The notes below the pieces were generated by a model, which was given only the letters and a program-made list of their open reading frames with translations, was not told where the DNA came from and did no database searches. This document shows positions 6,381 through 28,500 of a stretch of DNA of 38,940 nt, in pieces. The translations under genes and the position numbers were made by a program. This DNA comes from Methanobacteriota archaeon (GTDB lineage Archaea; Thermoplasmatota; Thermoplasmata; SG8-5; DAIRED01), in contig JAZDNO010000003.1 in NCBI GenBank assembly GCA_043799545.1, forward strand, positions 1 to 38,940, written 5' to 3'. Position 1 is the stretch's first letter, and every line of letters begins with the position of its first letter.

Positions 6381-6761
6381 ATGGCAATATGGCAGGGGCG
6401 CTCGAAGCGCAAGGACACTGGCGGCATGTACAGGCCGCTGCGCAACAAGAAGGCGTTCGAAATAGGCCCCGAGAGGCAGCTGGCTGTCGTCGGAGAGAAC
6501 TCAGTGAAGCACTACCGCACGCGCGGCCACAACAGCAAGCTCAGGCTCATGAAGGCGGATGTCGCGAACGTTCTGGACCCCAAGACAGAGAAGTGCGCCA
6601 GGTCCAAGATAGTCACTGTCAAGAGCAACCCGGCCGACCCGAACTACGTCCAGCGCAACATCCTGAACAAGGGCGCGGTCATCCAGACCGAGGCAGGGCT
6701 TGCCAAGGTGACGTCCCGCCCGGGCCAGAACGGCATAGTGAACGCCACCCTGATAGAATGA
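6381..6761 (+). CDS. rps8e: 30S ribosomal protein S8e
   Basis: MAIWQGRSKRKDTGG, RTRGHNSK, NPADPNYVQRNILNKGAVI, VTSRPGQNGIVNA are S8e hallmarks. Confidence 0.97.
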   Translation: MAIWQGRSKRKDTGGMYRPLRNKKAFEIGPERQLAVVGENSVKHYRTRGHNSKLRLMKADVANVLDPKTEKCARSKIVTVKSNPADPNYVQRNILNKGAVIQTEAGLAKVTSRPGQNGIVNATLIE

Positions 6762-6762
6762 G

Positions 6763-7074
6763 GTGATTCTTTTGAGAAGCCGGAGCGAGAACCACGTCCT
6801 CTGGCCGGTCTACTTCGACATCCACAGGTCCCGTGCTGACGGCCGGATGGTTTCCAAGAAAACCGCTGTGGAAGAACCTACTTGCGAGGACATATTTACG
6901 GCCGCGAAGGCATGCGGATTCACGGGCGAAATCGATGCCGACAGCGCCTTCCCGGGCGAGTGGCACAAGGCACGCGGCCGCGTGCACGTCGTGCGCACCT
7001 GCGCAAAATCTGAGCTTCTGAAGAAGGTGTCGGCCGAGATGAGGCGGATGAAGCAGAAGCCTGCAACGCAGTAA
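6763..7074 (+). CDS. srp19: Signal recognition particle 19 kDa protein
   Basis: LWPVYFD..RSRADGRMV, FPGEWHKARGRVHV, KSELLKKVS. The likely true start is TTG 6772, 5 nt after the SD GAGGTGA. Confidence 0.93.
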   Translation: MILLRSRSENHVLWPVYFDIHRSRADGRMVSKKTAVEEPTCEDIFTAAKACGFTGEIDADSAFPGEWHKARGRVHVVRTCAKSELLKKVSAEMRRMKQKPATQ

Positions 7075-7650: not shown

Positions 7651-7889
7651 TGTAGCAAACTATTTATCCGCACCTGGATTCCCCTGCCTTGCCTCTTTGA
7701 AATTAAAATGGGCCAGAGTTCTACCCGTAAGCCCTTTCTTTGTGCCTCGCTGCGCTGGCAGAGCCCTCGCAAAGAAAGCCCTTGGGTTTAAGAAACTCGG
7801 GCTCCGCCTTCTCGCTCGGCCGTTGTAGCAAACTATTTATCCGCACCTGGATTCCCCTGCCTTGCCTCTTTGAAATTAAAATGGGCCAG
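7651..7889 (+). repeat. Perfect 66-bp direct repeat (7651-7716 and 7824-7889) containing the tRNA promoter region and the first 7 nt of tRNA-Ala
   Basis: TGTAGCAAACTATTTATCCGCACCTGGATTCCCCTGCCTTGCCTCTTTGAAATTAAAATGGGCCAG occurs twice, 173 bp apart. Confidence 0.95.
7710..7804 (+). ncRNA. Candidate long-hairpin RNA or miniature inverted-repeat element
   Basis: Nested pairings GGGCC/GGCTC, GAGTT/AACTC, ACCC/GGGT, CTTTCTTTG/CAAAGAAAG, TGCC/GGCA. It lies directly behind the first promoter copy. Confidence 0.45.
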
Positions 7890-7956
7890 TAGATCAGCCC
7901 GGAAGATCGCTTCATTGGCATTGAAGAGGCCGCGAGTTCGAATCTCGCCTGGTCCA
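7883..7956 (+). tRNA. tRNA-Ala(GGC)
   Basis: Acceptor stem GGGCCAG/CTGGTCC with G3:U70, D stem GATC/GATC, anticodon arm CTTCA-TTGGCAT-TGAAG, T arm GCGAG-TTCGAAT-CTCGC, discriminator A, no encoded CCA, no intron. Confidence 0.97.
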
Positions 7957-7957
7957 C

Positions 7958-7967
7958 TTTTTATTTT
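7958..7967 (+). terminator. Oligo-T terminator after tRNA-Ala
   Basis: TTTTTATTTT immediately after the tRNA. Confidence 0.6.
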
Positions 7968-8097
7968 ACATCGATTGCAGCCAGTGGACTTAAAATCCTA
8001 ATGTTCATATCAGGCTTACCTCGGGCAAGGCTGGGTATATGGCTTCCTTGCCCTCGGTCTCGCCTGGTCAGGCTTTCCTTTAATGGCTGAAATGGAT

Positions 8098-8362
8098 TCA
8101 ACTTTCGGACAGAATTTCGTCGCGTATCCTCTCCAGTTGTGCATGCGCCTTCTTCACGTTGATGGCAAGGTTCTTCGCCGGTTCGGTAGTAGCTCATGTG
8201 CGCCTTGATGAGGCAGGTGCCGCCCTTGAAGACGAGATTGTCCCGCAAGTATGGATCGTTCGAGACCGCATGCAAGAGCCTGTGGAGGTGGAAGTCCTTC
8301 TCGATGATGTCCGGGCGCTTTGGCTTCCCGAGGGCGTTCAGGCGCTCGAAGAACTCCTTCAC
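8098..8362 (-). pseudogene. AbiEii-family nucleotidyltransferase toxin with internal deletion and frameshift
   Basis: The N-terminus DIIEKDFHL..LVFKGGTCLIKAHMSYYR stops where the family FSED motif is expected (~8184). A different frame then gives EPAKNLAINVKKAHAQLERIRDEILSES*, ending at 8098. Confidence 0.8.
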
Positions 8363-8994
8363 GGAAGGTCCCCCAGGGCGTCCTGGAACCTCACTGGGTA
8401 GCGCTTCAGGTACTTCGAGAGTTTCTCGCGGTCGAGCTTGGAGATGTGCTCATCGATGATTGCTTTCGATGAGCCTTTGCCGCTACGGTGCGCCCTGTAA
8501 GCCAGGTCCAGAACGGTCTTCTCCGGGTCTGAGTAGGCCAGGCGCCCCTTGTGAATGACGCCAAAGTTCAGGCGGTCAGGGCTCCATCTGTGGAACTGGA
8601 ACTTCGAACCGAGGATGCCGATGACCTTGGTGGTCCTGAACGAGCCCGTCGCGACGGAGTCGACCGCGAAGTACTCGTGGGTCATTCCGTTGAGCTTGAG
8701 GGCGGTCTCCAGGCCGAAGTGCCATCGCTTCACGCCTTTCATCTCCAGAGCCTCCGCCACCAGCTCGTAGGTCGACCGTTCGGAGAAGCTGCGCTCGCGC
8801 TCGTCCGCGCTCCGGACGTAGAAAACGCCCCTGAGGATCCGAGCGATGTAGCCATGCTCCATCAGGTATCGGAGGCTCCGGGTCTCGTCCTTGTCGAGGC
8901 GCTTTGCCAGCGCCTTTATCTCGCCGGATGTGACTATTCTGCGCCCGTCGACGAGCAGCTTTCTCCATATCGTGGGTGTGTTCATCTCGGTCAT
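8359..8994 (-). CDS. AbiEi-family (type IV TA) antitoxin / wHTH regulator
   Basis: GYIARILRGVFYV, HFGLETALKLNGMTH, SDPEKTVLD. GTGA overlap with the downstream AbiEii-like gene. Confidence 0.8.
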   Translation of the reverse strand: MTEMNTPTIWRKLLVDGRRIVTSGEIKALAKRLDKDETRSLRYLMEHGYIARILRGVFYVRSADERERSFSERSTYELVAEALEMKGVKRWHFGLETALKLNGMTHEYFAVDSVATGSFRTTKVIGILGSKFQFHRWSPDRLNFGVIHKGRLAYSDPEKTVLDLAYRAHRSGKGSSKAIIDEHISKLDREKLSKYLKRYPVRFQDALGDLP

Positions 8995-9049
8995 AATGTC
9001 CCCATTATTGGGATGTTATGACTCAAACGATTTATGTTTTTCGGGGGCG

Positions 9050-9077
9050 ATTCGTTAGATTCTCGAACGTAACGAAT
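9050..9077. promoter_or_regulatory. Inverted repeat, candidate AbiEi operator in the divergent promoter
   Basis: ATTCGTTA-N12-TAACGAAT, plus GATTCT(9058-9063)/AGAATC(9082-9087). Confidence 0.4.
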
Positions 9078-9177
9078 GGTTAGAATCAACAATTTCCACT
9101 GTCCGGTGGAAATGCGGAAAACTCTAGAAATGAATCGACAAGGAACGATTATATCCCTAGAAAGAGATGTGATTAGG

Positions 9178-9996
9178 ATGGCTGACAAAGCAATCGCATG
9201 GGCGACGGACATCCACTTGAACTTCGTGGGCGAGGCCGGATTCCGGAAATTCATCGACGAGCTACTGCTCAAATCGCCCGAGACGCTGCTTATCGCCGGC
9301 GACATATCGGATGGGCCCGGCGTCATGCCCTGCCTGCGGAAGCTGGAAGCATCTGTAAAATCCAAGATATGCTTCGTACTCGGGAACCACGATTCTTACC
9401 ACGGCTCGATATCCAAAACCAGGAGCCTCGCTGAGCAGCTTTCGAAGGAGTTCGAGAGGCTGGTATTCCTCGACGGGCATGCCCCGGTCGAGATGGCGGA
9501 GGGCGTGGCTCTCGTGGGGCACAGCGGCTGGGCGGACGGACGGTATGGCGATTACGGGCGGTCGGACGTGATGCTCAACGACTACGTCCTCATCGACGAT
9601 TTCAAGGGCTTGAGTAAAATGCAGAGGCTGGATAAGCTGAACGAGTTGGGAGATGAGGCGGCAGGACACCTAAGAAGGAGCTTGTCAGATGCGTTACAGG
9701 AGTACGAGAAAGTGATTTGCCTGACTCATGTCCCCCCGTTCCAAGAGGCTTGCCTGTACGAAGGGCGGCGCACCGATGAAAACCATCTGCCACACTTCGC
9801 CAACAAGGCGGCGGGCGATGCCATGTTGGACGTGATGGAAGGGCGGCCAAACGCCCGGCTGAGCGTCCTGTGCGGCCACACGCACAGCCACAGCCACGTC
9901 AAAATCCGCGAGAACCTCGTCGTGACTGCCGGGGGCGCCCAGTACGGCCAGCCCAAGCTACAGGATGACGCGGCATTACTCGAATTTCTACGTTAG
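9178..9996 (+). CDS. Calcineurin-like metallophosphoesterase (Icc/CpdA-like)
   Basis: All five motifs: TDIH, IAGD, GNHD, LTHVPP, GHTH. Start taken at ATG 9178 (the ORF track begins at 9076). Confidence 0.88.
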   Translation: MADKAIAWATDIHLNFVGEAGFRKFIDELLLKSPETLLIAGDISDGPGVMPCLRKLEASVKSKICFVLGNHDSYHGSISKTRSLAEQLSKEFERLVFLDGHAPVEMAEGVALVGHSGWADGRYGDYGRSDVMLNDYVLIDDFKGLSKMQRLDKLNELGDEAAGHLRRSLSDALQEYEKVICLTHVPPFQEACLYEGRRTDENHLPHFANKAAGDAMLDVMEGRPNARLSVLCGHTHSHSHVKIRENLVVTAGGAQYGQPKLQDDAALLEFLR

Positions 9997-10195
9997 TCGC
10001 AGAAATAAGCGTCTTTCGACGGTTTTTGAGTAGTAGTGCAATGATTGTATACTTAATTTCTTACATTGTGATTTTTGTATACGCCCATGTATGCAATTTT
10101 AAATATTAAAGAAATGTAGCCGCCCATACATTTTTACCTTTTGGTATAAATGTGCAAAATAGTAAAAATTCGAAGGCGCAGGAGTTCTTAAGTCC

Positions 10196-10251
10196 AATGC
10201 ACAATGCAAATTTACCGAATTACTTAAATAGTATTTCGGCATTATTGCATT
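10196..10251 (+). promoter_or_regulatory. Leaderless promoter with dyad-symmetric operator centred on the TATA box
   Basis: AATGC-AC-AATGC...CCGAA-T-TACT-TAAAT-AGTA-T-TTCGG-CATT-ATT-GCATT. TTAAATA lies ~25 nt before ATG 10255. Confidence 0.6.
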
Positions 10252-10254
10252 CAT

Positions 10255-11103
10255 ATGGGTCGCCGAGAATCGCTGAACGATACCGAGATTGAAATCATGC
10301 GCCGGCTTCAGGACGGCAAGATGTCCGTGTCTGGCTTAGCGGCAGCGCTCTCCATCTCTCCGGCATGGGCCTCGGAATGCGTTTCGCACCTGTCGGAAAC
10401 GGGGTTCGTAGACCGCGAAAAGAAGGGAACTGGAGTCACCGTGGGCATGAGTCAGTCACCCATAGGGACGGCGGCATCCTTCTTGATTCGGGAGAATGCC
10501 ATGCTTAAGCTCGAGGCAGTTCTCACTGGGTCGGGGTTGAAAATCCTCATGCTTGTTCAAAAACCGGGTTGCGACTCGAGAAGCATAGCCGCCAGGGCAT
10601 CCATATCGCTGAGGACGGCCAGGGGTGTGCTGGCAAGGTGGAGAGGCATGGGGATATTGACCTTGAAGGACGGGGTGTACGCCATCAATCCGGCGCACAC
10701 AACTCTGTCCGCGTTCGCGCGTAGTTGGGCCGAGCATATAAACTCCGCGATATTAAAAGAAAAATATCCGAACGCGGTCATCGTCTGGCAGTGGCGCGAC
10801 GAGTTCATATTCACGAGCGATGGTCGGGTGTCGGACGATTCGTTCAAGCCAGCTGGACCCACGCGTCTGGAGGAACTGAATTACGACATCATCGGCAGAA
10901 CCTTCTATTATCAATACAGGCCAGACGGGGAGGAAGTCTCGGAGGCCGAAGCCCTCGTCCAGACGGTCATGATAGATCCTTTGAATCCTAGACCGCTCAG
11001 GCACCTCAGAAACGCGAAGGTAAGCAAGGCCGAACTTGCCAAATTCGCTGAAAAATATGGTTTGAAGCTTGATTTGAAAAATGGAGGGATGCAGCTTGGC
11101 TGA
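10255..11103 (+). CDS. Double winged-helix protein, probable antitoxin/regulator
   Basis: Two wHTH-like segments (MSVSGLAAALSISPAWASECVSHLSETGFV; SRSIAARASISLRTARGVLARWRGMGIL). It overlaps the downstream NTase gene. Confidence 0.7.
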   Translation: MGRRESLNDTEIEIMRRLQDGKMSVSGLAAALSISPAWASECVSHLSETGFVDREKKGTGVTVGMSQSPIGTAASFLIRENAMLKLEAVLTGSGLKILMLVQKPGCDSRSIAARASISLRTARGVLARWRGMGILTLKDGVYAINPAHTTLSAFARSWAEHINSAILKEKYPNAVIVWQWRDEFIFTSDGRVSDDSFKPAGPTRLEELNYDIIGRTFYYQYRPDGEEVSEAEALVQTVMIDPLNPRPLRHLRNAKVSKAELAKFAEKYGLKLDLKNGGMQLG

Positions 11104-11899
11104 GAGAAAGAGGTTCGAAAGGAAAGAGCTTGTCAAAGTCCTGGAGCAGACCGGCGAGAACGTCAACAAGGAAACGTCCGCATATCTGATTGGCGGCCTG
11201 AACATGATATTGGACGGATTCAAGACCACCACAAAGGACGTGGACCTGGTGTTCTCCGACGAGGCTTCGGTGAAAAAGTTCGTCAGCGCTTCGGAGAAAG
11301 CGGGTTTCACCAGGGTCAAGAAGCTGGAGACCGATTACCGGGATCTGAACGCTTGGATTGTATTAGAGACCGCCAGCGGCATGAGATTTGACATCTTCTG
11401 CCGGCAAGTTTGCGGCGGGTTGGTGTTGTCACCCGGAATGATGGCCCGGTCAGATGAGAGGCTTCGCTTCGGCAACCTGATAATAAAGTCCTGTTCGTCC
11501 GAAGACATCTTCCTGTTCAAATCGATAACCTCCCGGCCGGACGACCTGACGGACATGAGGGCCTTGCTGGGCCGTGTCATAGACTGGAAAATCATCGAAA
11601 ACGAGGTGCGCTCCCAGCCAGATTCGTGGAGATGGATAGGCCGCCTTTACGGAAGGCTTCTGGAGCTCCGTGATGTGTATGACGTTAAATCTCCCCTCCT
11701 TGAGACATTGGAGCCGGATGCCGAGCTATCCCAGGCTATGGGTATCCTGCTTTCGCACATCGAAAAAGAACCGCTCTCGAAATCGGAAGCTGTTTCGGTT
11801 TTGGAAAAAGACGGGGCACTGGCAACGGCATCTTTGAAAAAATTGGAGAGGCTTGGATTGGTGGCTTCCGACAAGGGGAAATATCGTCTGGCAAAGTAG
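11096..11899 (+). CDS. DUF6036/AbiEii-like nucleotidyltransferase with C-terminal wHTH, probable toxin
   Basis: AYLIGGLNMILDGFKTTTKDVDLV (GG..TxDxD) and FLFKSITSRPDDLTD. TTG start 8 nt after GGAGG (the ORF track starts at 11081). Confidence 0.75.
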   Translation: MAERKRFERKELVKVLEQTGENVNKETSAYLIGGLNMILDGFKTTTKDVDLVFSDEASVKKFVSASEKAGFTRVKKLETDYRDLNAWIVLETASGMRFDIFCRQVCGGLVLSPGMMARSDERLRFGNLIIKSCSSEDIFLFKSITSRPDDLTDMRALLGRVIDWKIIENEVRSQPDSWRWIGRLYGRLLELRDVYDVKSPLLETLEPDAELSQAMGILLSHIEKEPLSKSEAVSVLEKDGALATASLKKLERLGLVASDKGKYRLAK

Positions 11900-11911
11900 G
11901 CATACCCATTC

Positions 11912-12040
11912 TCAGCATGGCAGTTCCCCAAGGGCGCTCTGGAACCGCTGCGGGTAGCGTTTCAGGTACTTCGAGAGCTTCTTATGGTCGAGTTTAGAAA
12001 GGTACTCGTCGATGATTGCCCTCGGTCTCGCCCGGTCCAT
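11912..12040 (-). pseudogene. Remnant 3' end of a second AbiEi-like antitoxin gene
   Basis: MDRARPRAIIDEYLSKLDHKKLSKYLKRYPQRFQSALGELPC* aligns with the C-terminus KAIIDEHISKLDREKLSKYLKRYPVRFQDALGDLP* of 8359-8994. The DNA is clearly homologous. Confidence 0.85.
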
Positions 12041-12189
12041 TGTGCAACGACGTTTTCCCTCGGCACAGTTCGCATAGCCCGGTGACTATCAATAATTTTT
12101 CTTCCGATTTTATTGGGGTTCAGGCTCCAAAGAGAGACCAAAATCGTTTGTCTTTTCCACCCAAAATCCGTCATACCCAGGGATTGGTC

Positions 12190-12197
12190 TTATATAC
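12190..12197 (+). promoter_or_regulatory. Archaeal TATA box for cphB-cphA
   Basis: TTATATAC ~25-30 bp upstream of ATG 12221. Confidence 0.5.
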
Positions 12198-12220
12198 TCA
12201 ATGTACGTTACAGGGAGTTG

Positions 12221-13108
12221 ATGAATAAGGCGGTCGATGGCGCTCAGGGGAACCGGAACGACCCCGAAGCCCCGGAAGGGATTCTGGTCGCTGTCGGGGG
12301 AAACGAGGACAAGGAGAACGACCTCGACGTCCTCAGGAGAATAGCCGGGCTGATAGACCACCCCAACCCGGTAATAGAGATCATCACGACAGCGAGCAGC
12401 ACGCCGAAGAAGATGGGGGAAGTGTACCTCGGCGTTTTTACCAAAATCGGCATAACGAATGCGAACGTCATCCACATTGGCAAGAGAGAAGAGGCGAACA
12501 ACGCCGAATACATCGACAGAATCAAGAAGGCCGACATAATATTTTTCACCGGCGGCGACCAGCTAAAAATAACCAGCATACTAGGAGGGTCCCATTTCCT
12601 TCAGGAAATCAAGAGGAGGTACTTCAATGAAAAGTGCGTCGTCGCGGGAACCAGCGCCGGGGCAACGGCCATGCCTGACACGATGATTTACGGCGGCGAG
12701 AGCGGGGAGGCGCTGTGCAAGGGCGCCGTCAACATGACCTGCGGCATCGGGCTAATCAAGCACATCATAATCGACAGCCATTTCATCAAAAGGGGCAGGT
12801 TCAGCAGGCTGATGGAGGTTGTCTCATCAAATCCCGGATACATCGGCCTGGGCCTGGGCGAGGACACCGGTGTGATAATACGGAACGGTCACATACTAGA
12901 GGCCATCGGGAACGGACTGGTTGTGATATTTGATGGTCACGGGATAAAATATACCAACATCACTTCGTTGAAAGACGGGGAAGCCATATCCGTCGAAGGG
13001 GTTCTTGTGCACACGATAGCCAAGGGCCACGGATACAACATCAAGACCCGGGAGTATCTCAACCCAGCATACCAAAGAAAGGTGATGAGGGCCATCAATG
13101 ATTATTAG
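12221..13108 (+). CDS. cphB: Cyanophycinase (S51 serine peptidase), intracellular type
   Basis: AVGGNEDK, FFTGGDQLKI, catalytic GTSAG, IIDSHFIKRGRFSRL, GLGEDTG. No signal peptide. Overlaps cphA by 11 bp. Confidence 0.92.
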   Translation: MNKAVDGAQGNRNDPEAPEGILVAVGGNEDKENDLDVLRRIAGLIDHPNPVIEIITTASSTPKKMGEVYLGVFTKIGITNANVIHIGKREEANNAEYIDRIKKADIIFFTGGDQLKITSILGGSHFLQEIKRRYFNEKCVVAGTSAGATAMPDTMIYGGESGEALCKGAVNMTCGIGLIKHIIIDSHFIKRGRFSRLMEVVSSNPGYIGLGLGEDTGVIIRNGHILEAIGNGLVVIFDGHGIKYTNITSLKDGEAISVEGVLVHTIAKGHGYNIKTREYLNPAYQRKVMRAINDY

Positions 13109-15731
13109 GGAAATCAGAGCCCTGGGCGGTCCGAACTATTACAGCCGTTATCCAGTAATCTTCATGCTTTTGGACATCGGCAAATTGGAGGGAAGGTCAT
13201 CGAACATGGTTCCCGGCTTGAAAAGCCGTCTCAGCAGGCTGATACCCACGATGTGGGACCACCGTTGCTCCCTCGGCTACCCGGGCGGTTTTTTGGAAAG
13301 GGTCGAGACCGGGACGTGGGCCGGCCACATAGTCGAGCACGTCGCGATTGAGCTTCAGTGCCTCGCGAATATGAACGTCGGTTTCGGCAAGACGCGCGAG
13401 ACCTCTGAGGAGGGCGTTTACACGGTCGTCTTCAGATACCGAAGCCCCGAAGCCGGCATCGAGGCCGGAAAGGCGGCCGTGAAGATTGTGGACGCGCTGT
13501 TCAAGAAACAGCCCATCCGGATAGCGCCCATCATATCCCATTTGAAGGAAGTGCGCGAGGAGAACCTGTTCGGGCCCTCGACATTCTCCATAATAAAGGA
13601 AGCTGGCAGCCGCGGGATTCCATACATCCGCCTCAACAACCAAAGCTACGTCCAATTGGGCCACGGAAGATACCAGCGGAGGATTCAGGCCACGATGATG
13701 GACAACACCTCCGCCATCGGCGTGGAGATTGCGGACGACAAGGAGCAGACCAAGGACATCCTCTCGGACGCAGGGGTTCCTGTCCCTAGAGGGGAATCCG
13801 TCCGCGATTTGGGGGGCGCAATCGATGTGGCCAACGATGTGGGATATCCTGTCGCGGTAAAACCTCTGGTGGGCCATCACGGGAACGGCATCACGGCCCG
13901 CGTCAACAGCGAGAAGGAGCTCAGGATGGCTTTCGCCAGCGCGAGGAAATTCCATGACTACGTCGTTGTGGAGAAGCATCTGGAAGGTTTCGACCACAGG
14001 CTGCTGGTCATCGGCGGCGAGCTCGTCGCGGCCGCGAGAAGGGACCCGGCCAGCGTGATGGGCAACGGAAAATCGACTATACGCGAGCTGATAGTCATGG
14101 TCAACAAGGACCCGAGGCGCGGCATCGGGCACGAGAAGGTACTCACCAGGATAAAAATCGACGGCATGACCAAGCGGCTGCTCAAACAGCACGGCCTGCA
14201 GCTCACCGATGTCCTGCCCGAGGGGAGGCTCCTCCGCCTAAAGTCCACGGCCAACCTGAGCACGGGCGGCTGCTCGATAGACGTGACGGACGAGGTGCAC
14301 CATCAAATCAAGAAGATGGCGGAGCGGGTGTCGAAATTGATTAACATCAACGTCATGGGAATTGATGTCGTTGCGCCCAACCTCAGGCAGCCTCTCAGGG
14401 AAACGGGAGGCGGGATTGTCGAGGTCAACGCGGCTCCGGGATTCAGGATGCATCTGGACCCCTACTTCGGAACAAGCAGAAACGTCGCCAAGCCCGTCGT
14501 CGACATGCTCTTTCCACCCGGCAGCAACAGCACGATACCAATAATAGCGGTGACAGGCACGAACGGAAAGACGACCACCGTCCGGTTCATAGCCCACATC
14601 CTGAAATATGCCGGAAAGAACGTGGGAATGTGCTGCACCAACGGCGTCGAGATAGGAAACCAGTTGGTTCTGGAGGGCGACTACAGCGGTCCGGACGGGG
14701 CAAAGCACATACTGAAAGACCCGACGGTGGACCACGCGGTCCTGGAAGTTGCCAGAGGCGGCATACTGAGGAGGGGGCTGGGTTACGACGAGAGCGACGT
14801 GGGGGTCGTTTTGAACGTCTCCACCGACCATCTGGGCCTGGACGGAATCAACACCCTGGAGGAGCTGGCAGAGCTCAAGAGAATCGTCGTCGAGACGGTC
14901 AAGCCAGATGGGCTCGCGGTGATAAACGCCGACAACGAATGGACCTTGGGCTACAAGGACCTCATCAAGGCGAAGTCCATACTCTTCTCCATCCACGACG
15001 ACAATCCCGCGCTTGCCGCACACGTTGCCAACGGCGGAACCGCCGTGACCGTCAAAGACGGGGAGATAATCCTGAGGAAGGGCACGTCCGACGTGACCAT
15101 CGCGAAGATAAACAACATCCCGATTACCTTCGGCGGAAAGGCGACGTTCAACGTCGCCAACACCCTGGCGGCCGTCGCAGCCACATATGCGATAGGCATA
15201 GACATCAAGACCATACAAATCAGCCTGGTCACATTCAACCCGTCCACCGGCCAATTGCCAGGCAGGGCGAACCTGATAGACGTGGACACGTTCAAGGTCT
15301 TGATAGACTACGGGCACAACCCCTCGGCCCTTGAGGCGCTGGCAGAGCTGATTCCCCATCTCGCGAGGGGAAAGAAGATTAACGTCGGCAGCGGGACGGG
15401 CAACAGGAGGGACGTGGACATTTTGGATTTCGGAAAGAACATCGCCAAGATGTACGATTACATCATCCTGAACGATTCGGACCCCAGGAAGCGCAAGCTT
15501 GGGGAGACCGCTGAAATGGTGCGCAAGGGGGTGCTGTCTACCGGTTTTCCCAAAAAGAACATCCGCGTCGTGCTTGAGGAAGCCGCGGCCATCCAGGTGG
15601 CTCTCAGGATGGCGGAGGCCGGTGACCTGATTGTCATCCAGGCCAACGACGTGAACAAGGCAATCCACGACGTTTTGGAGTACAAGGAGAAACTGACGCA
15701 CGGGGGCAAGGTGAAGAAAAAGCGTGGCTGA
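13098..15731 (+). CDS. cphA: Cyanophycin synthetase CphA1
   Basis: N-domain GPNYYS and HRCSLGYPGGF..GTWAGHIVEHVAIELQ. ATP-grasp domain VAVKP..GHHGNG, TANLSTGG, EVNAAPGFRMH. Mur-ligase domain AVTGTNGKTT, EVARGGILRRGL, DYGHNP. Confidence 0.95.
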   Translation: MIIREIRALGGPNYYSRYPVIFMLLDIGKLEGRSSNMVPGLKSRLSRLIPTMWDHRCSLGYPGGFLERVETGTWAGHIVEHVAIELQCLANMNVGFGKTRETSEEGVYTVVFRYRSPEAGIEAGKAAVKIVDALFKKQPIRIAPIISHLKEVREENLFGPSTFSIIKEAGSRGIPYIRLNNQSYVQLGHGRYQRRIQATMMDNTSAIGVEIADDKEQTKDILSDAGVPVPRGESVRDLGGAIDVANDVGYPVAVKPLVGHHGNGITARVNSEKELRMAFASARKFHDYVVVEKHLEGFDHRLLVIGGELVAAARRDPASVMGNGKSTIRELIVMVNKDPRRGIGHEKVLTRIKIDGMTKRLLKQHGLQLTDVLPEGRLLRLKSTANLSTGGCSIDVTDEVHHQIKKMAERVSKLININVMGIDVVAPNLRQPLRETGGGIVEVNAAPGFRMHLDPYFGTSRNVAKPVVDMLFPPGSNSTIPIIAVTGTNGKTTTVRFIAHILKYAGKNVGMCCTNGVEIGNQLVLEGDYSGPDGAKHILKDPTVDHAVLEVARGGILRRGLGYDESDVGVVLNVSTDHLGLDGINTLEELAELKRIVVETVKPDGLAVINADNEWTLGYKDLIKAKSILFSIHDDNPALAAHVANGGTAVTVKDGEIILRKGTSDVTIAKINNIPITFGGKATFNVANTLAAVAATYAIGIDIKTIQISLVTFNPSTGQLPGRANLIDVDTFKVLIDYGHNPSALEALAELIPHLARGKKINVGSGTGNRRDVDILDFGKNIAKMYDYIILNDSDPRKRKLGETAEMVRKGVLSTGFPKKNIRVVLEEAAAIQVALRMAEAGDLIVIQANDVNKAIHDVLEYKEKLTHGGKVKKKRG

Positions 15732-15782
15732 GCCCTCGATTTTTTGATTTACTAAATGTGCGTCTCCAGAACAATTTATTCT

Positions 15783-18934: not shown

Positions 18935-19148
18935 GAACGTCGTTGAGGAGCTGGTCGCCGACTGGGACGGCTTCCGCAGGGCGCTGCGGGCTGAAGACCG
19001 CGTGCGCTTCGACGAGATGATGGCCCGCGCCAGGGAGCTCGCGTCAGCCGGCGGGCACGACGTGCGTTTGGACCCGTCCGAATCCATCTTCATGTCCATC
19101 CTGCTCGGCCACGAGAAGGAGCTGGCGGAGCTGAGGGAGCGCAGATGA
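18909..19148 (+). CDS. Small helical protein typical of archaeal polB2 operons (arCOG07300-like)
   Basis: MGRTLPTYR..W..FRRALRAEDR..FDEM...ESIFMSILL. It overlaps both neighbours (ATGA overlap with polB2). Confidence 0.8.
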   Translation: MGRTLPTYRNVVEELVADWDGFRRALRAEDRVRFDEMMARARELASAGGHDVRLDPSESIFMSILLGHEKELAELRERR

Positions 19149-21385
19149 GCGCGTGGCTCTTCGACGCGCAGGCAGACATCGCCCGCGACGAGATGCAGCT
19201 TTGGCTCTGGAGCGAGCGCGGAATCGAGAAGCGCACCGACGCAGAGTTCAGGCCTGAATTGATAGTCTGGCACGGCTCCAGGGAGGAACTACGCTCCCTT
19301 GCCGGGGACATGGAAATCATGGACTCCGTGGATTCCACGAGGCTCGTCAGGCGAAAGCTGCGGCTGGGCTCGGACAAATTATACGCGGCGCTGGCCGTGC
19401 GGCCTCGGCGGTACTCCGATTTGAGGGTGTGCGCCCGCGTCGTGGACTCGCGCGGCGGCTACCGCGACTACCAGCTCTTCAACGCTGACCTGAGGCCCGA
19501 GCAGTCGTACCTCGTTTCCAGGGGGCTCTTTCCCATGGCCAGGGTCAGGGCGAATGGGGGGATATCGCTCGACGACGAGCAGTTCGCGCTCGATTACGAA
19601 ATGCCGCATCTGCGCGAGGCCAGCCTGAGCGTCTCCACAATCGGGCGCCTGCCGTCGATGGCGTCGAAGCTCGTGTGCGTCGGGCTCGGGGACGCGAAGC
19701 TCACGGGCTCTGAGGAGGAAATCCTGCGTGCGCTGGGCGACGAGCTGCGCAAGCAAGACCCGGACGTGCTCTACACCGACGGAGGCGATTCGTTCGCGGT
19801 GCCGTACCTCCTCAAGAGAGCGGAGGCGAACGGCGTGCGCCTGGTCCTCGGGAGGGAGCCCCAGACAGTCGATTCCAGGGCGGGCCGCTCCTACTTCACA
19901 TACGGCACGATTGTCTACAAGCCGAGGGCCCAGTTGCTAAGAGGCCGCTTCCACATGGACAGGGAATCTTTCATGCTCTCGGAGGGGGGCTTCGACGGAC
20001 TCATAGACATGGCGAGGCTCTCGGGCTTGCCGATGCAGGCCGCGGCGAGGCTCACCCCAGGCAGCGCGATAAGCGCCATGCAGGTCCAGCTGGCTATGCG
20101 GGACGGCTACGCCATCGCTTGGAAGAAGAACGCGCCGGAGGACTTCAAGGGGGCGGACGAGCTGCTGATGGCCGACCGCGGAGGGATGATTTACGACCCG
20201 CGGGTGGGGCTATACGAGAACGTGGTCGAGGTGGACTTCACCTCGCTCTACCCGAACATCATGGCTCGCCACAACATCTCTCCCGAGACGCTGCTGTGCC
20301 AGTGCTGCCCCGATTCTCGCGCGCGAGTGCCAGGGCTGCTCTACAACATCTGCGAGCGTAGGCGCGGGCTGATTCCCCGCGTCGTGGAGCCGCTCGTCGA
20401 GCGCAGGATGCGCTTCAAGCGATTGATAAGGGAGGACCCAAGGAATGAAAAGATATACCTCCAGCGCGCGTCGCTCCTGAAGTGGGTGCTGGTGACGTGC
20501 TTCGGCTACACTGGCTACAGGAACTCGCGCTTCGGGCGCATAGAGTGCCACGAGGCAATCAACGCGTATGCCAGAGAGATTTTAGTTCGCACCAAGGAGC
20601 TGGCAGAATCGCACGGCTACAATGTGCTGCACGGAATCATCGACAGCATGTGGTTAAGTCAGGAGAAGAGCGACCGGCGCATGCGTCAGCGCGAACCCCG
20701 GTCAATCTCCGGCGTTCGCGAAGACGAACCGCAAGGCCGCGCAAAGGTTTCGTCAGACCATGAGTGGTTCTGCGAGCGCGTCTCCGCGGAGATAGGAATC
20801 CCCCTCGCCCTCGAGGGCGTCTACAAGTGGATTGTGTTCCTGCCGACGAGGAACACCGGGGCTGGAGCGCTCAACAAGTACTATGGGTGCTTCGAAAACG
20901 GTGAGCTTAAGGTGCGCGGAATCGAGCTGCGGAAGCACGACGCCCCTCCGGTGGTCAAAGATGCGCAGAAGGAGATGCTTGACATCCTGTCGAAGGCCGC
21001 GGATGCGGAAGGGTTCAGGGCGCTCGTCCCCGAAGCGCTCGCCGCCCTTGAGAGACGGGCGAAGGATGTCGCGGGCGGCCGCGCCGGCTTGGACCGCTTG
21101 GTGATTGCCAAGCGCATATCCAGGGGAGCCGACAGCTACGGGCAGCGCAACGACCAGGCGGCGGCTCTGCGCCTTCTCAAGGCTGCGGGCCAGGCAGTCC
21201 ACCCAGGGGAACTTGTGCGCTTCGTCCTGACGACGGACGGGGCTGTCCCGGCCGAGCTGCTACGGGGCGACGAAATCTACGACGGCGGGCGATACATTGA
21301 CCTGCTGGCCAGGGCGGGCGAATCGCTCTTCTGCTTCACAGGCCTCGGCAGGGACGCGATACAGTCTGGTTGGGGGGAGGGATGA
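19145..21385 (+). CDS. polB2: Family B DNA polymerase, PolB2 group
   Basis: Motif A VDFTSLYPNIM, motif B LKWVLVTCFGYTG, FGRIECHEAINAYAR. Motif C is altered to HGIIDS (first Asp missing), with LNKYYG and KVRGIELR downstream. The exonuclease region is degenerate. Confidence 0.9.
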   Translation: MSAWLFDAQADIARDEMQLWLWSERGIEKRTDAEFRPELIVWHGSREELRSLAGDMEIMDSVDSTRLVRRKLRLGSDKLYAALAVRPRRYSDLRVCARVVDSRGGYRDYQLFNADLRPEQSYLVSRGLFPMARVRANGGISLDDEQFALDYEMPHLREASLSVSTIGRLPSMASKLVCVGLGDAKLTGSEEEILRALGDELRKQDPDVLYTDGGDSFAVPYLLKRAEANGVRLVLGREPQTVDSRAGRSYFTYGTIVYKPRAQLLRGRFHMDRESFMLSEGGFDGLIDMARLSGLPMQAAARLTPGSAISAMQVQLAMRDGYAIAWKKNAPEDFKGADELLMADRGGMIYDPRVGLYENVVEVDFTSLYPNIMARHNISPETLLCQCCPDSRARVPGLLYNICERRRGLIPRVVEPLVERRMRFKRLIREDPRNEKIYLQRASLLKWVLVTCFGYTGYRNSRFGRIECHEAINAYAREILVRTKELAESHGYNVLHGIIDSMWLSQEKSDRRMRQREPRSISGVREDEPQGRAKVSSDHEWFCERVSAEIGIPLALEGVYKWIVFLPTRNTGAGALNKYYGCFENGELKVRGIELRKHDAPPVVKDAQKEMLDILSKAADAEGFRALVPEALAALERRAKDVAGGRAGLDRLVIAKRISRGADSYGQRNDQAAALRLLKAAGQAVHPGELVRFVLTTDGAVPAELLRGDEIYDGGRYIDLLARAGESLFCFTGLGRDAIQSGWGEG

Positions 21386-21469: not shown

Positions 21470-24400
21470 ATGGGTAACGAAGGTGCGAACTGGGACGAGT
21501 TTATTAAATATCTGGACCAGGTCAAGAAGCGCGAGCAGGAGCTTGACCAGAAGGACAGCGCTCTCAAGGAAGACATCCGAGTTTTTGAAGCCAGGAGCGC
21601 AGAGGTAGATTCGAAGCTGAGGGGGCTTGAAGATAAGGCGTCGGAATTGGCTGAGAAGGAAAGGCTGATTGCCGAGAGGGAGAAGTCTTTTGCAGCCCGC
21701 GAGGAGGAGATCGCCCGCAGGGGCGACGAGCTGGCGGCGGGCGAATCCGAGATGAAGAAGAAGGAAGCCGCGCTCGAGAGGGAAAACGAGGCGGCCAGGG
21801 CCAGGGAGGAGTCAATCTCCGAGAAGGAGATGCTCGCGGCCGAAATGGAGAAGGAAGCGGCGTCGAAGTTGTCCGAGGCCGCGGCCAGGAGCGACGAACT
21901 GGCTTCAAAGGAAAAATCGCTCTCGCACAGGGAGGAGGAGCTGGCGAGCAGGGATTCCACAATCAAGGAGAGGGAGGAATTCATCTCAAAGGAGGCCGAG
22001 GTCGTCAAGGCAGGGATGGAGAACCTGTCCTCCAAACAGGCCGAGGCCGCGCAGAAGGAAAGCGCCCTTGCGGAGAGGGAGGCAGGAGTTTCCGCGAGGG
22101 AAGAGGAATTGGGCGCTGCGGAGAAGTCGCTTGCCGAAAAGGACACGAACCTCGTCCCGAGGGAGAACGCCTTGGCCGAAGGCGAGAGGCGGCTCGCCGC
22201 GAAGTCGGATGACATCGGAGAAAGGGAAAAGTCGCTTGCCGAGAGGGAGGGCGCGCTGGAGCGCAGCAGAGCCGAGGTCGCCGAGAAGGAGACATCCCTG
22301 AAGGCCGATGTGGAGAGATTCGCTGCGATGCGCGACGAGTTGGAAGCCAGGGAGGCTGAACTGGCTGGAAAGGGGGACGTGCTCAAGGGGGCAGAGGCGA
22401 CCCTGAGGCAGGTCGAGGCATCGCTGTCCGCGAGAGAAACTGCCGTTGTGGAACGGGAGGGCGCGCTGGCTGGCGGGGAGGCCAAGCTGGCCGAAGATGC
22501 GAAGACATTGGAGAATCAGATGGCGGAGTTCGCCTCAAGCGAATCGTCGGTCCGGGAGAGGGAGGCCGGACTGGAAGCGCGGGAGGCGGCCATTGCGGAG
22601 AAGGAGAGCGCCTTCTCGGGCGAAGTAGATAAATTCAAAGGCGAGGCGGAACGGCTGGAACGTAGAGCAACGGAGCTGTCCGCCCTTGAAACGGAACTCA
22701 AGCAGAGGGAGGGTGCGCTGGCGGAAAAAGAATCGGATCTGGCGGGACGGGAGCAGACATTCGCTGGGGAGGCTGGCAGAATCCAGGAAGAGGCTGAAAA
22801 GCAGGAGCAGAGGGCCGCCGACCTGAAGGAGATGGAATCTTCTCTTCTCGAGAAGGAGGCGCAGCTCGCCGAGAGGGAAGCTGCCCTGAAGACAAAGGAA
22901 AAGGATTTCGAGGGCGGGCGCCAGGAGTTCGAGGCGGCCGAGGCGGAAGTCAGGGAGTTCCAGGCGACCCTGACGAAAAGAAAGGCCGAGCTGGACGAAA
23001 GGGAGGCGGCTCTGCGCGTCCGCGAGGAGGGGCTGGACAAAGGGCTGGCCGAGAGGGAGAGCCTCGTGGCCGTCAAAGAAAATGGAATTGTCGAGCGCGA
23101 GAACCTCATCGCCACGAAGGAGAAGGATGTGGCCGAGCGCGAGGCGGATTTGAAGGCGCTGGAAGAGAGGCTTGCGGGAAGCGAGGTCGCATTCGCGGCG
23201 AGGCAGAAGGAGTTGGATTCCCAATCGCAGGAGTTTGCGGCCGCCAACGATGACGTGAAATCTCTCCAGGCGACCCTGAACTCGAGGATGGCCGAGCTTG
23301 ATGCGAGGGAGGCGTCGGTTCGCGCCCGCGAGGAGGGGCTGGACAAAGGGCTGGCCGAGAGGGAGAGCCTCGTGGCCGCCAAAGAGGGGGGAATGGCGGA
23401 GCGCGAGAATCTCATGAATGCAAAGGATGCGGAGCTTGCTGCAAAGGTGAACGCCTTGGCAGAGAGGGATGCGCAGCTGGCCGAGCGCGAGAGGAAGCTG
23501 GCCTCTGACGAGTCTGGCATTTCAGAGAAGGAGAGGAACCTGCAGGAGTCGGAGGCCCGCATCCGGGAGTCCGAGCAGAGGGCCGCCGCCGAGAGGGACA
23601 ATTTGGCCGCGAGCCAGACCGGGCTTGCGAGCGCGGAGGCCCTGCAAAGGCAGCTCGACGAGCGGGGAGCGGAGCTCGAGAGGCTAAGGGCGGAGCTGGA
23701 TTCGGCGAAGGCGCAGGTCGATGGTGAAAAGGCGTCGGCGGCGGAAATGGGCGGAACGCTGGCCAGGCGCGAAACTGCGCTCGTGGAGAAAGAGACAGGG
23801 CTAGCCGCACGCGAGAGCGCGCTCGCGGAAAAGGAGGCCGCGGCGAGCCAGACCAGGGAAAAGCTCGAGACCCAGAGGCGCAACATAGAGAGAATCAAGG
23901 AAGAGATGGAGGCGAAGCTCGCCGAAGTCGAAGCGAAGAGGAAGGAGCTCGCCGCGAAGGACGCCGTCCGCGAAGCGCAACTGATGACTGAGGAAAAGGC
24001 GGAGATTGAGGCGTCGGAAGTTCCGGACACATCTCAACCGCCTGGAATCCAGGCGCCAGTCGAGCCGGAGCAGATAGAATCGGCCATAATCGTCAAGGGC
24101 CCTGAAGCGCCCGAAGAGGAAGTCCAACTTGCCGAATCGCAGGGCGATTCATCCAGTCTGGCGGAGCAAACGGTCGATGCGGAGGCGCTCGCGACGGTCC
24201 CGCCGGAGGAGATTGTAATCGCCGCAACCGACACACAGGCACTGGCGGCGGAGCAATTGCCCGACGGGCAGATCGAGTGCCCGGGCTGCAAGACTCTGCT
24301 GGACGGCGACACCGCGATGTGCTACAACTGCGGAGAGGTCATAACGAACAACATCAAGCCCGGGAACGCGGAGCCGGAGAAGCCGGCGGAGGAAACTGTG

Positions 24401-24538
24401 CCGTGCCCTGGCTGCCAGACCCTGTTGCCGAAGGGAACCGCAATGTGCTACATCTGCGGCCAGAAAATCGAAATCGAACCGGCGGACAAGGGACAGGAAC
24501 CGCCGAAGAAAGCCGTCAAAAGGATACGGGTCATCTAA
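21470..24538 (+). CDS. Giant coiled-coil protein with two C-terminal C4 zinc ribbons
   Basis: About 800 aa of near-continuous LAERE-type heptads, a Pro/Glu-rich linker, CPGCK..CYNC and CPGCQ..CYIC, and the basic tail KKAVKRIRVI. Confidence 0.85.
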   Translation: MGNEGANWDEFIKYLDQVKKREQELDQKDSALKEDIRVFEARSAEVDSKLRGLEDKASELAEKERLIAEREKSFAAREEEIARRGDELAAGESEMKKKEAALERENEAARAREESISEKEMLAAEMEKEAASKLSEAAARSDELASKEKSLSHREEELASRDSTIKEREEFISKEAEVVKAGMENLSSKQAEAAQKESALAEREAGVSAREEELGAAEKSLAEKDTNLVPRENALAEGERRLAAKSDDIGEREKSLAEREGALERSRAEVAEKETSLKADVERFAAMRDELEAREAELAGKGDVLKGAEATLRQVEASLSARETAVVEREGALAGGEAKLAEDAKTLENQMAEFASSESSVREREAGLEAREAAIAEKESAFSGEVDKFKGEAERLERRATELSALETELKQREGALAEKESDLAGREQTFAGEAGRIQEEAEKQEQRAADLKEMESSLLEKEAQLAEREAALKTKEKDFEGGRQEFEAAEAEVREFQATLTKRKAELDEREAALRVREEGLDKGLAERESLVAVKENGIVERENLIATKEKDVAEREADLKALEERLAGSEVAFAARQKELDSQSQEFAAANDDVKSLQATLNSRMAELDAREASVRAREEGLDKGLAERESLVAAKEGGMAERENLMNAKDAELAAKVNALAERDAQLAERERKLASDESGISEKERNLQESEARIRESEQRAAAERDNLAASQTGLASAEALQRQLDERGAELERLRAELDSAKAQVDGEKASAAEMGGTLARRETALVEKETGLAARESALAEKEAAASQTREKLETQRRNIERIKEEMEAKLAEVEAKRKELAAKDAVREAQLMTEEKAEIEASEVPDTSQPPGIQAPVEPEQIESAIIVKGPEAPEEEVQLAESQGDSSSLAEQTVDAEALATVPPEEIVIAATDTQALAAEQLPDGQIECPGCKTLLDGDTAMCYNCGEVITNNIKPGNAEPEKPAEETVPCPGCQTLLPKGTAMCYICGQKIEIEPADKGQEPPKKAVKRIRVI
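23020..23378 (+). repeat. Perfect 53-bp intragenic repeat (23020-23072, 23326-23378) within a 306-bp (102-codon) duplication
   Basis: CCGCGAGGAGGGGCTGGACAAAGGGCTGGCCGAGAGGGAGAGCCTCGTGGCCG occurs twice; the protein repeats REEGLDKGLAERESLVA. Confidence 0.92.
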
Positions 24539-25541: not shown

Positions 25542-28500
25542 ATGAAAGAAGCGCTTTCCATCGCACTTGTCGTGGGAATGATACTCTCTACGGTTTGCGT
25601 TTCTTCTGGATTGATAGGTGCGAGCGCAATAGGAGTGGAGAAAGAAAAAATAAAGCCGATTGGAGCTACAGCTTCCGGTCTCGCCAATGATATGGTACAA
25701 TCTTATACGATTCATGCGCCACTCCGGATAAATAACAACGCAGGTTTTGCGGCATATGCGAATGGTGGTGGGGACGGGAGCGTCAGTAGCCCGTGGGTAA
25801 TCGAGGGATTGGATATCAATGGGACGGGAGTTGGATATTGTGTTTATATTGGAAACACAACAGAATATTTTATTGTGAGAGATTGTTATTTGCATAATGC
25901 TAACGGTTTATGGAATTACTCATATTACACTGGTTCAGGTATAACGTTTCGTAATGTAACAAATGGTAAGATATTAGACAGCACGACCACCTTGAATAAC
26001 AACAATGGAATATTATTCTTTTCTTCCAGTAACAACTCCATTGTTAATAGTTATGCTACATCGAACAATCAGTTTGGAATCTATTTACAAACCGATTGTT
26101 ACTATAACACAATCACCAATAATATTGCGACAAACAACCAATATGGCATCATCCTCACATATTCCTCTGATAACAATGTCATCGATCATAACAGGGTTAC
26201 CTCAAATAGTGGGAACGGCATTTTCTTAGGCGGTGATTCTGTTATTGCGGGGCCTTCCAATAACGTTATCTCGAATAATACTGTATCTTACAATGGTTAT
26301 GGTTTTGTTATCCAGTTCTCCTCTACTAACAATATTATTACTGGTAATACCGTTGCAGGTAATACGGGAAGAGGTATTCACATAATTACTTCCAGCAATA
26401 ATAATAGAATATATCACAACAATTTAATCAATAACGCTATTCAAGCCTACGATTTTTGTATCAACTATTGGGATAGCGGCTACCCGTCAGGTGGTAATTA
26501 CTGGAGCGATTATATCGGCAGTGATATCTTGATGGGCTCTGGCCAGGATGTACCAGGCTCTGACGACATCGGTGACACCCCGTACACTAGTATATTGGGC
26601 GGGATGGGCGCGAAGGACAACTATCCTTTTATTTCTTCAAATACTTGGTTATCAATGAATGGCTGGCATTACTACGACAATGATATACAAAGCAACTGTT
26701 ATTATCCGTTTCCAAGCGACACTCCCACGTCATTGTCCTCATTCGAATTACTTTGGGATATTCCGCTTTCCGGAAGTGCTAGGACGGGCGACATCGATAA
26801 TGATGGCGACATCGAAATCGTTATCATCGATACAACGAATAAAAAGCTCATCGCATATTCAGAGGGAACAGAACTCTGGAGTGCAGATCTGGGTGCGGAT
26901 GCTGGCATCGTACCAACGTGGATGGACTTCACATCTAGGAATTGCGAGCTAGCCGACTACGATATGGATGGAACTCTTGAAATTGGTATAGCCGTCAGCG
27001 AAGGCGGCACATCATCCAACGGTAAAGCGATGATGCTCTTCTATGATGGTGAAGGGAACCTTATCAAGTCTATACCGGTTCGCGATTGCTGGACCGTAGA
27101 GACAATGAAGTGTGTGGATCTCGATAACGATGGCGACATGGAGGTCCTTGCGGGATTATTAGCTGGTTACACTTTGACGCCTCGTGGCATATATGCGTTT
27201 GATTATAATACTGGGATAGAAATATGGCATTACGATGTCGCGCCGTTCATCAGAATTGGAGCCGTCGCGGACATAAACCAAGATGGGTTCAAGGAGCTGT
27301 TGCTGGAGGCATCCTCTCCATCAAATGGATATTCAGTTAATGGCACTAGTGATTCTAATACTTACATCATAGCTTTAAATTCGAATGGCAGTAAATTATG
27401 GGCACGTTTAATTGGAAACGATCATTCGAAAGTATGTGTCGCCGACCTTGAAAACGATGGCAATCTCGATATTATTGCGACACAAAACCATTGGGGGTCT
27501 TATCCTGGTCAAGCCTATGTTTATATTCTAAATCCAGATGATGGTACTAATCTAAAAATGCATCCCGGTCCAATTAATCAAGGTTACGGTTGTCCAGCCA
27601 TATGCGATATTAATGATGATGATGTGAAAGAAATAATGATATTGTCAAATGACGGTTATTTATCAGTCTTTGACAGTAATTTAAGTTTAATTAACAGCAT
27701 TGCTGCGAACTACGGTTATCTCGCAGCAAACGACATCAATGGCGATGGAAATATTGAGATAATTGTTACATCTGATGCATCTAATCAGGCAACGATATAT
27801 AATGGAGAACTAACCAAGTTGTGGAATTATACTACAAGGGGAAAAATCATAATCTCTGATCTAACGGGTGATGGAATTAATGAAATTATTACCGCGGAAG
27901 TTTCTAGAATAGCAATAATTGGCTATAAAGAAATTATAAAGATCTCCCCGTCTCCACCCATCAATCTTCTTACAACCCCATATTATTCGTTCATATCGCT
28001 AAGTTGGAATCCTCCTGCGTCTAACGGTGGTGCTCCTATCACAGCTTATAACATTTATCGCGGAACAGCTAGCAATGCTGAATCGTTCCTTGCTTCTGTA
28101 AGTATCCTCTCTTATTATGATTACTCGCTGTCTGTAGGCCAAACATATTTCTATAAAATAACCGCTGTTAATTCCATCGGAGAAGGTGCTTTCTCCAATG
28201 AAGCTAACGCTTCCTTCAGAATGTCTACGCCGGAAGTCCCACAGAACGTTATCGCCTCCAGTGGGAGTAAATATGTAAACCTCTCGTGGAACGCCCCGAC
28301 ATTCGATGGAGGATATCCTGTCACTAACTACAAGATTTATCGTGGGACTTACACCGGTGGCGAGAGTCATTTCGTTACGGTCGGTGATATTCGTTATTGC
28401 AATGACACTCCTCTCACAAATGGCCAGCAATATTTCTATCGGGTTAGCGCGGTGAATTCCAAAGGTGAGGGACCGAGATCTGATGAAGTACATTCAATAC

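Follow-up and report, generated by a model that had tools for sequence, protein, structure and literature searches.

A two-gene locus for the metabolism of cyanophycin, a nitrogen-storage polymer of aspartate and arginine (multi-L-arginyl-poly-L-aspartate), was analysed in a genome of the archaeal phylum Thermoplasmatota that was binned from metagenomic DNA (2.06 Mb in 31 contigs, 94% complete, 0.85% contamination). The window, the whole stretch of DNA that was analysed, is an entire contig of 38,940 bases (C8). The first gene, cphB (12221-13108, plus strand), encodes a predicted intracellular cyanophycinase of the peptidase S51 family with 295 residues, and the second, cphA (13098-15731, plus strand), encodes a predicted CphA1-type cyanophycin synthetase of 877 residues with N, G and M domains. 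The open reading frame (ORF) containing cphB spans 12113-13108 on the plus strand with the first in-frame ATG, at 12221, the likely start. The coordinates of the cphA start (13098) and the cphB stop (13108) confirm the 11-bp overlap of the two genes given in the original prediction for this DNA. A Shine-Dalgarno-like GGTGA was read within the 3' end of cphB (13081-13085, plus strand), 12 nt 5' of the cphA ATG, and together with the overlap suggests coupled translation of cphB and cphA. A run of six T residues 9 nt 3' of the cphA stop codon (15740-15745, plus strand) was also read from the sequence and is a likely oligo-T terminator of the archaeal kind.

The TATA box TTATATA (12190-12196, plus strand) is located 24 nt 5' of the cphB ATG. 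The 100 nt 5' of cphB were aligned (alignment A4) for six genomes of the order, comprising this genome, its sister species (G001) and genomes G006, G007, G018 and G021. The alignment revealed TTA(T/A)ATA as the sole conserved block upstream of cphB, the remaining upstream DNA being unalignable. The spacing between the box and a (G)ATG start was nearly constant, 24 nt in the window and the sister species and within ~1 nt of that value in the others, which supports 12221 as the start of cphB. The spacing implies an archaeal promoter geometry that would yield a leaderless or near-leaderless message, and the promoter accompanies the gene pair. The archaeal-type TATA box named in the original prediction is thus upheld, as an element common to the six genomes.

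CphA scored 1146.7 bits against the curated cyanophycin synthetase model TIGR02068, for which the cut-off is 850 bits. The Pfam architecture consists of the cyanophycin-synthase N domain PF18921 at residues 23-135, an ATP-grasp domain at ~210-316, the Mur-ligase middle domain PF08245 at 485-695 and the Mur-ligase C-terminal domain PF02875 at 722-848. Residues 6-859 align with CphA1 of Synechocystis sp. UTEX2470 (SuCphA1, PDB 7LG5) with 798.9 bits, an end-to-end alignment in which the residues of all three sites are kept. The roles of CphA1 residues and the definition of the Cx19HxxEH motif were taken from the literature (PMC9262961). The Cx19HxxEH zinc site of the N domain is represented by C57, H77, E80 and H81, the G-site histidine by H261 (H267 in SuCphA1) and the M-site Asp-His pair by D577 and H578 (D585 and H586 in SuCphA1), accompanied by the P-loop TGTNGKTTT at 486-494. 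Each of these residues is invariant in an alignment of 14 sequences (alignment A1). In Synechocystis the Cx19HxxEH site cuts the polymer into primers, and it marks a primer-independent subgroup of synthetases (PMC9262961). Since the residues of the N, G and M sites are all present and invariant, CphA is predicted to be a primer-independent CphA1 enzyme. The M domain is full in CphA1, unlike that of CphA2, in which it is reduced.

CphB scored 234.5 bits against the cyanophycinase model TIGR02069 (cut-off 126.6 bits). The protein matched PDB 7UQV with 200.4 bits and PDB 3EN0, the CphB of Synechocystis PCC 6803, with 147.2 bits, and the GTSAG, DxHF and GEDT motifs were aligned. The enzymes belong to a common S51 fold family with a Ser-His-Glu triad, which in the window corresponds to Ser145, His187 and Glu214, aligned to both solved enzymes and conserved in the six genomes. 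The N-terminus is hydrophilic and charged without a hydrophobic stretch in all six copies, in which no signal peptide was seen, as judged by eye. The hydrophilic N-terminus argues that CphB is cytoplasmic, and the solved enzymes likewise have no export signal. The absence of a secretion signal separates intracellular CphB from extracellular CphE. The specificity pocket of the Synechocystis cyanophycinase reportedly consists of Gln, Asp, Gln and three Arg. Five of these six residues are kept in CphB, the RxRxxR element of the pocket being common to all the enzymes compared, and the sixth, a Gln, is replaced by Ser186 in all six genomes. This position directly precedes the catalytic histidine, and we take it to correspond to Gln173 of the Synechocystis enzyme. 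For the residues checked in CphA and CphB, the alignments to solved structures confirm the intact catalytic motifs of the original prediction.

The host contig is archaeal. Archaeal marker genes flank the cphB-cphA pair on both sides, including those encoding rps8e (6381-6761; PF01201, 126.7 bits) and SRP19 (6763-7074) and a family-B polymerase (19145-21385); an archaeal DUF211 gene and genes for MutS/MutL are also on the contig. The linkage of the pair to rps8e, srp19 and polB2, claimed in the original prediction, therefore holds within one contig. The composition of the pair was compared with that of 770 long ORFs of the host genome, for which the median GC content at third codon positions (GC3) is 0.795 and the mean GC content is 0.594. 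The GC3 of cphA, 0.78, is at the 42nd percentile of these ORFs and that of cphB, 0.72, at the 20th, while the overall GC of cphB is at the 8th percentile. Copies of cphA and cphB in relatives have GC3 values of 0.42-0.53, and each copy fits its own host over a GC3 span of 0.43-0.80. The composition of the pair fits the host and gives no hint of foreign DNA. The ratio of nonsynonymous to synonymous substitution rates (dN/dS) relative to the sister species was 0.092 for cphA and 0.097 for cphB, and values among the lower-GC relatives of the order were 0.10-0.30. The low ratios indicate that both genes are under purifying selection.

The adjacent, overlapping cphB-cphA pair is also present in the five other genomes of the order, each time in a different archaeal chromosomal setting. 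The pair is flanked by genes for SRP54, an M50 protease and DUF531 in the sister species, by genes for aEF-1alpha and methylmalonyl-CoA mutase on a 956-kb contig in G007, and by genes for Hef and the TATA-binding protein (TBP) in G021. No gene order around the pair common to the window and its relatives was found among six relatives examined. In the sister species the pair separates the M50 protease gene from a convergent gene of 273 codons. These same two genes are adjacent on another contig of the present genome (C22), with a short spacer and no pair between them. The correspondence of a filled site in the sister species with an empty site in this genome shows that the pair has moved within the genus. 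The pair is not accompanied by a recombinase gene. The comparison of filled and empty sites is what the window itself contributes; otherwise it adds little beyond what is seen for other archaeal pairs.

A match to cphA was detected in 42 of the 401 Thermoplasmatota genomes sampled, and 36 of the matches pass the cut-off. Counted by genus the presence is 24/162, with 17/24 for one family. Among the 61 genomes of the close-relative sample, this one counted in both figures, 10 have cphA above the cut-off. The best named relatives of the window CphA are 75-77% identical, come from bins of Thermoplasmatota or Thermoplasmata and are annotated "cyanophycin synthetase"; the closest relatives from metagenomes are 84-86% identical. 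The rarity implied by the original prediction is at odds with these counts, with the public bins already annotated and with the genes noted for Heimdallarchaeia in 2018.

The phylogeny of CphA was analysed in unrooted trees obtained with FastTree (238 sequences, of which 101 rows have no organism label) and IQ-TREE (LG+G4, short search, 64 sequences). The bacterial sample in the trees was partial and, among the matches listed, consisted mostly of Bacteroidota and Acidobacteriota. The two methods agree on the placement of the window CphA, which groups with the sister species (support 100), then with the order (99) and then with a family of its own class (100). The enclosing clade (support 100) comprises 41 rows, of which 27 are archaeal, seven bacterial and seven unlabelled. 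All seven bacterial rows are confined to one subclade of 14 rows and the first-splitting subclade is wholly archaeal, with Bacteroidota, Acidobacteriota, Chloroflexota and one cyanobacterium located outside the 41-row clade. No bacterial donor near the window CphA was found in the trees with this partial bacterial sample. The archaeal nesting and the agreement of the GC3 of each copy with that of its host argue that cphA is not a recent bacterial import, and point to a pair that has long resided in Thermoplasmatota and was relocated locally. The original prediction had described the pair as horizontally acquired, which, in the sense of an import from bacteria, is not supported given the nesting at the levels of genus, order and class in an archaea-rich clade and the unexceptional GC3 of cphA. 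Not all Thermoplasmatota copies have this position: those that branch elsewhere include a sequence pair from family f44 and a lineage of 37-39% identity in genomes of the same class, so the phylum acquired cphA more than once.

The bacterial rows nested in the archaea-rich clade (P0060, P0064, P0067, P0091, P0097, P0112 and L028) are from Acidobacteriota, Aminicenantes, Bacteroidales and Tissierella, and their position, in an unrooted tree with many unlabelled rows, suggested transfer from archaea to bacteria. The different lineage in same-class genomes (G022, G046 and G056), with CphA 37-39% identical to that of the window, has cphB convergent to cphA; its loci include L024 (G022:C2, 7758-11333) and L025 (G046:C6, 8235-11725), and its CphB is also 37-39% identical. 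In family f51 a second gene was found in tandem with full-length cphA (G193:C15:10545-11933 beside 12824-15418; also on G389:C77, G386:C98 and G296:C8). The product of the second gene mostly matches the M-domain half of the model (~393-860), the match extending over 72-859 in G296, and is possibly a truncated or repurposed cphA paralogue.

The results are best explained by a self-contained two-gene unit that is native to the archaeal chromosome and provides for an internal cyanophycin reserve, a reading that is considered probable. By all the sequence evidence the pair is real, functional-looking and selectively maintained, and it extends a known system rather than representing a new one. Homology predicts that the ATP-grasp G domain of CphA would lengthen the chain at its C-terminus by aspartate and that the Mur-ligase-like M domain would attach arginine to the aspartate side chain. 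The zinc site of the N domain would make primers, so that the enzyme should start without an added primer. CphB, as a cytoplasmic Ser-His-Glu peptidase, would release beta-Asp-Arg dipeptides from the polymer. The single TATA-box promoter would direct a leaderless bicistronic message, with translation of cphA probably coupled to that of cphB through the overlap. Polymer synthesis in vivo, a storage role and the manner in which the dipeptide is finally split are inferred.

Several observations weigh against an internal reserve of this kind. Trp672, which holds the SuCphA1 tetramers together, aligns with a serine in CphA. The pocket position before the catalytic histidine of CphB is Ser186 in place of the Gln of the solved enzymes, a replacement common to the six genomes of the order. 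The enzymes IadA, IaaA and CphZ (TIGR01975, PF01112 and PF24827) were not found in the 94%-complete genome, and control genomes matched in the same searches. Co-transcription of a polymer-making and a polymer-breaking enzyme, if it occurs as the gene arrangement suggests, raises the question of how a futile cycle is avoided. Finally, the genome was obtained by binning of metagenomic DNA.

Arginine deiminase and McrA were likewise not found in searches of the genome itself. One arginase-family gene and several M20 peptidases are present, unlinked to the pair, and are uninformative either way. The lack of a dedicated dipeptidase is not exceptional, because 27% of bacterial genomes with cphA are without IadA and IaaA by the count of the authors reporting it (PMC9974463). 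With none of the known dipeptidases found, the beta-Asp-Arg dipeptide must be split in this organism by a peptidase that is either general or unrecognised. The original prediction of a complete synthesis and degradation operon thus falls short at the dipeptidase step, which is without a recognisable enzyme in the genome and points to a gap in the known cyanophycin pathway.

Three other explanations were weighed against a native reserve-forming unit. A recent horizontal import from bacteria, with the genes now under control of an archaeal promoter, would be in line with the largely bacterial diversity of known CphA, the patchy presence among relatives (11 of 61, this genome included), the location of the pair next to a tRNA-linked island, in a variable region, and at another site in the sister species, and the somewhat low GC of cphB. 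Import is nevertheless unlikely, considering that the closest sequences are archaeal and branch in step with kinship from genus to class, that the few bacterial rows of the 41-row clade are restricted to one subclade while the first to split is archaeal, that the GC3 of the copies tracks each host and that the archaeal promoter is common to the order. The source of the genome in a bin, the length of the contig (only 38.9 kb) and its mosaic composition, with GC varying between 0.40 and 0.68 per kb, could be taken to indicate an assembly or binning artefact, with a bacterial fragment fused to archaeal DNA or placed in the same bin. An assembly chimera is very unlikely, to the point of being nearly negligible, because the markers on the contig are archaeal on both sides, the composition of the pair is host-like and the pairs of the five relatives are flanked by archaeal housekeeping genes, in one case on the 956-kb contig; the promoter, too, is of archaeal type.

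An activity other than the formation of an Asp-Arg reserve was also considered, in which the pair would make a variant polymer, for example one containing lysine, or would mainly process fragments of cyanophycin that are taken up from cyanobacterial debris. CphA1 enzymes accept lysine in place of arginine, the Gln-to-Ser replacement in the CphB pocket is conserved in the order, and neither a dedicated dipeptidase nor arginine deiminase was found in the genome. Against this stand the lack of a signal peptide in CphB and the full length, three intact sites and strong constraint of CphA. Scavenging alone would need no synthetase, and the explanation is judged quite improbable. Returning to the native two-gene unit, a bolder extension would hold that the Thermoplasmatota CphA clade represents an old archaeal lineage from which some bacteria (the Acidobacteriota, Aminicenantes, Bacteroidales and Tissierella mentioned above) later received the gene, that the minimal cphB-cphA unit shifts among chromosomal sites without a recombinase of its own and that an unrecognised family of beta-Asp-Arg dipeptidases exists; taken together, these propositions are speculative and rather doubtful.

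The gene order of the pair is the same as that in cyanobacterial cphB-cphA units with CphA1 (PDB 7LG5 and 7TXV). The locus differs from these units in the archaeal host, the TATA box with a predicted leaderless start, the serine in place of Trp672 and the failure to find IadA or IaaA in the genome. The difference from the solved cyanophycinases lies in the residue before the catalytic histidine. Reviews still call cyanophycin a bacterial polymer. A pangenomic study of 2025 found CphA to be specific to bacteria in its sample (PMC11915815). Genes for synthesis and degradation of cyanophycin were reported in a 2018 preprint for the Heimdallarchaeia bins LC_2 and LC_3 (bioRxiv 10.1101/385732), and a 2022 paper described cyanophycinase in Culexarchaeia and called archaeal cyanophycin degradation untested there (PMC9723716). 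Archaeal cyanophycin proteins annotated by PGAP include those of Thermoplasmatota, Ca. Saliniplasma and Ca. Natronoplasma. These other archaeal genes of Heimdallarchaeia, Culexarchaeia and Thermoplasmatota resemble the present pair in having hosts known only from bins and in being known as genes alone; the present copy is distinguished by its place in a specific order-level clade and by its minimal two-gene form. The literature search found no paper demonstrating the polymer in any archaeon, in agreement with the original prediction, and, within the library searched, none discussing cyanophycin synthetase in Thermoplasmatota. The intact and constrained pairs with archaeal promoters, and the presence of cphA in about one-tenth of the Thermoplasmatota genomes sampled, suggest that this form of nitrogen storage is used by archaea too, which is of relevance to nitrogen cycling in the sediments and soils inhabited by uncultured Thermoplasmatota. 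With its compact unit of two genes, the clade is suited to a first biochemical test.

The DNA to the left of the pair contains a tRNA-Ala gene (7883-7957) and a decayed island of ~4 kb (7943-12039). A pattern search for the 3' end of the tRNA (repeat family D3) returned plus-strand copies at 7943-7956, 8058-8071 and 12026-12039 and a minus-strand match at 37356-37369, four matches in the window compared with 0.38 expected by chance. The copy at 12026-12039 (plus strand, 13 of 14 bases) forms the right edge of the island and lies 150 bp 5' of the TATA box of cphB. The possibility that the pair is cargo of the island was rejected: no plus-strand copy of the tRNA 3' end is present in the window to the right of cphA, and the pair adjoins the island from outside. 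This agrees with the original prediction, which had placed the pair just outside the island boundary. The island is one of toxin-antitoxin-like genes and includes an AbiEi-like gene, a metallophosphoesterase gene and a winged helix-turn-helix (wHTH) gene paired with one for a DUF6036 nucleotidyltransferase. A gene-fragment-like repeat of 109 nt occurs at 8360-8468 and 11916-12024 with 79% identity. A perfect direct repeat of 66 nt (7651-7716 and 7824-7889) comprises the promoter region of the tRNA-Ala gene and the first 7 nt of the tRNA, its upstream copy lying 173 bp 5' of the real tRNA-Ala gene.

Directly 3' of the family-B polymerase gene, at 21470-24538, a protein of 1022 residues is encoded in which an RNase-Y-N-like helical stretch is combined with double zinc ribbons at the C-terminus. 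The DNA of the contig that looks most clearly foreign lies at 25-33 kb and contains a single ORF of 2436 codons (25542-32852) with a GC of 0.44 and a GC3 of 0.435, compared with the mean GC of 0.594 for the long ORFs of the host.

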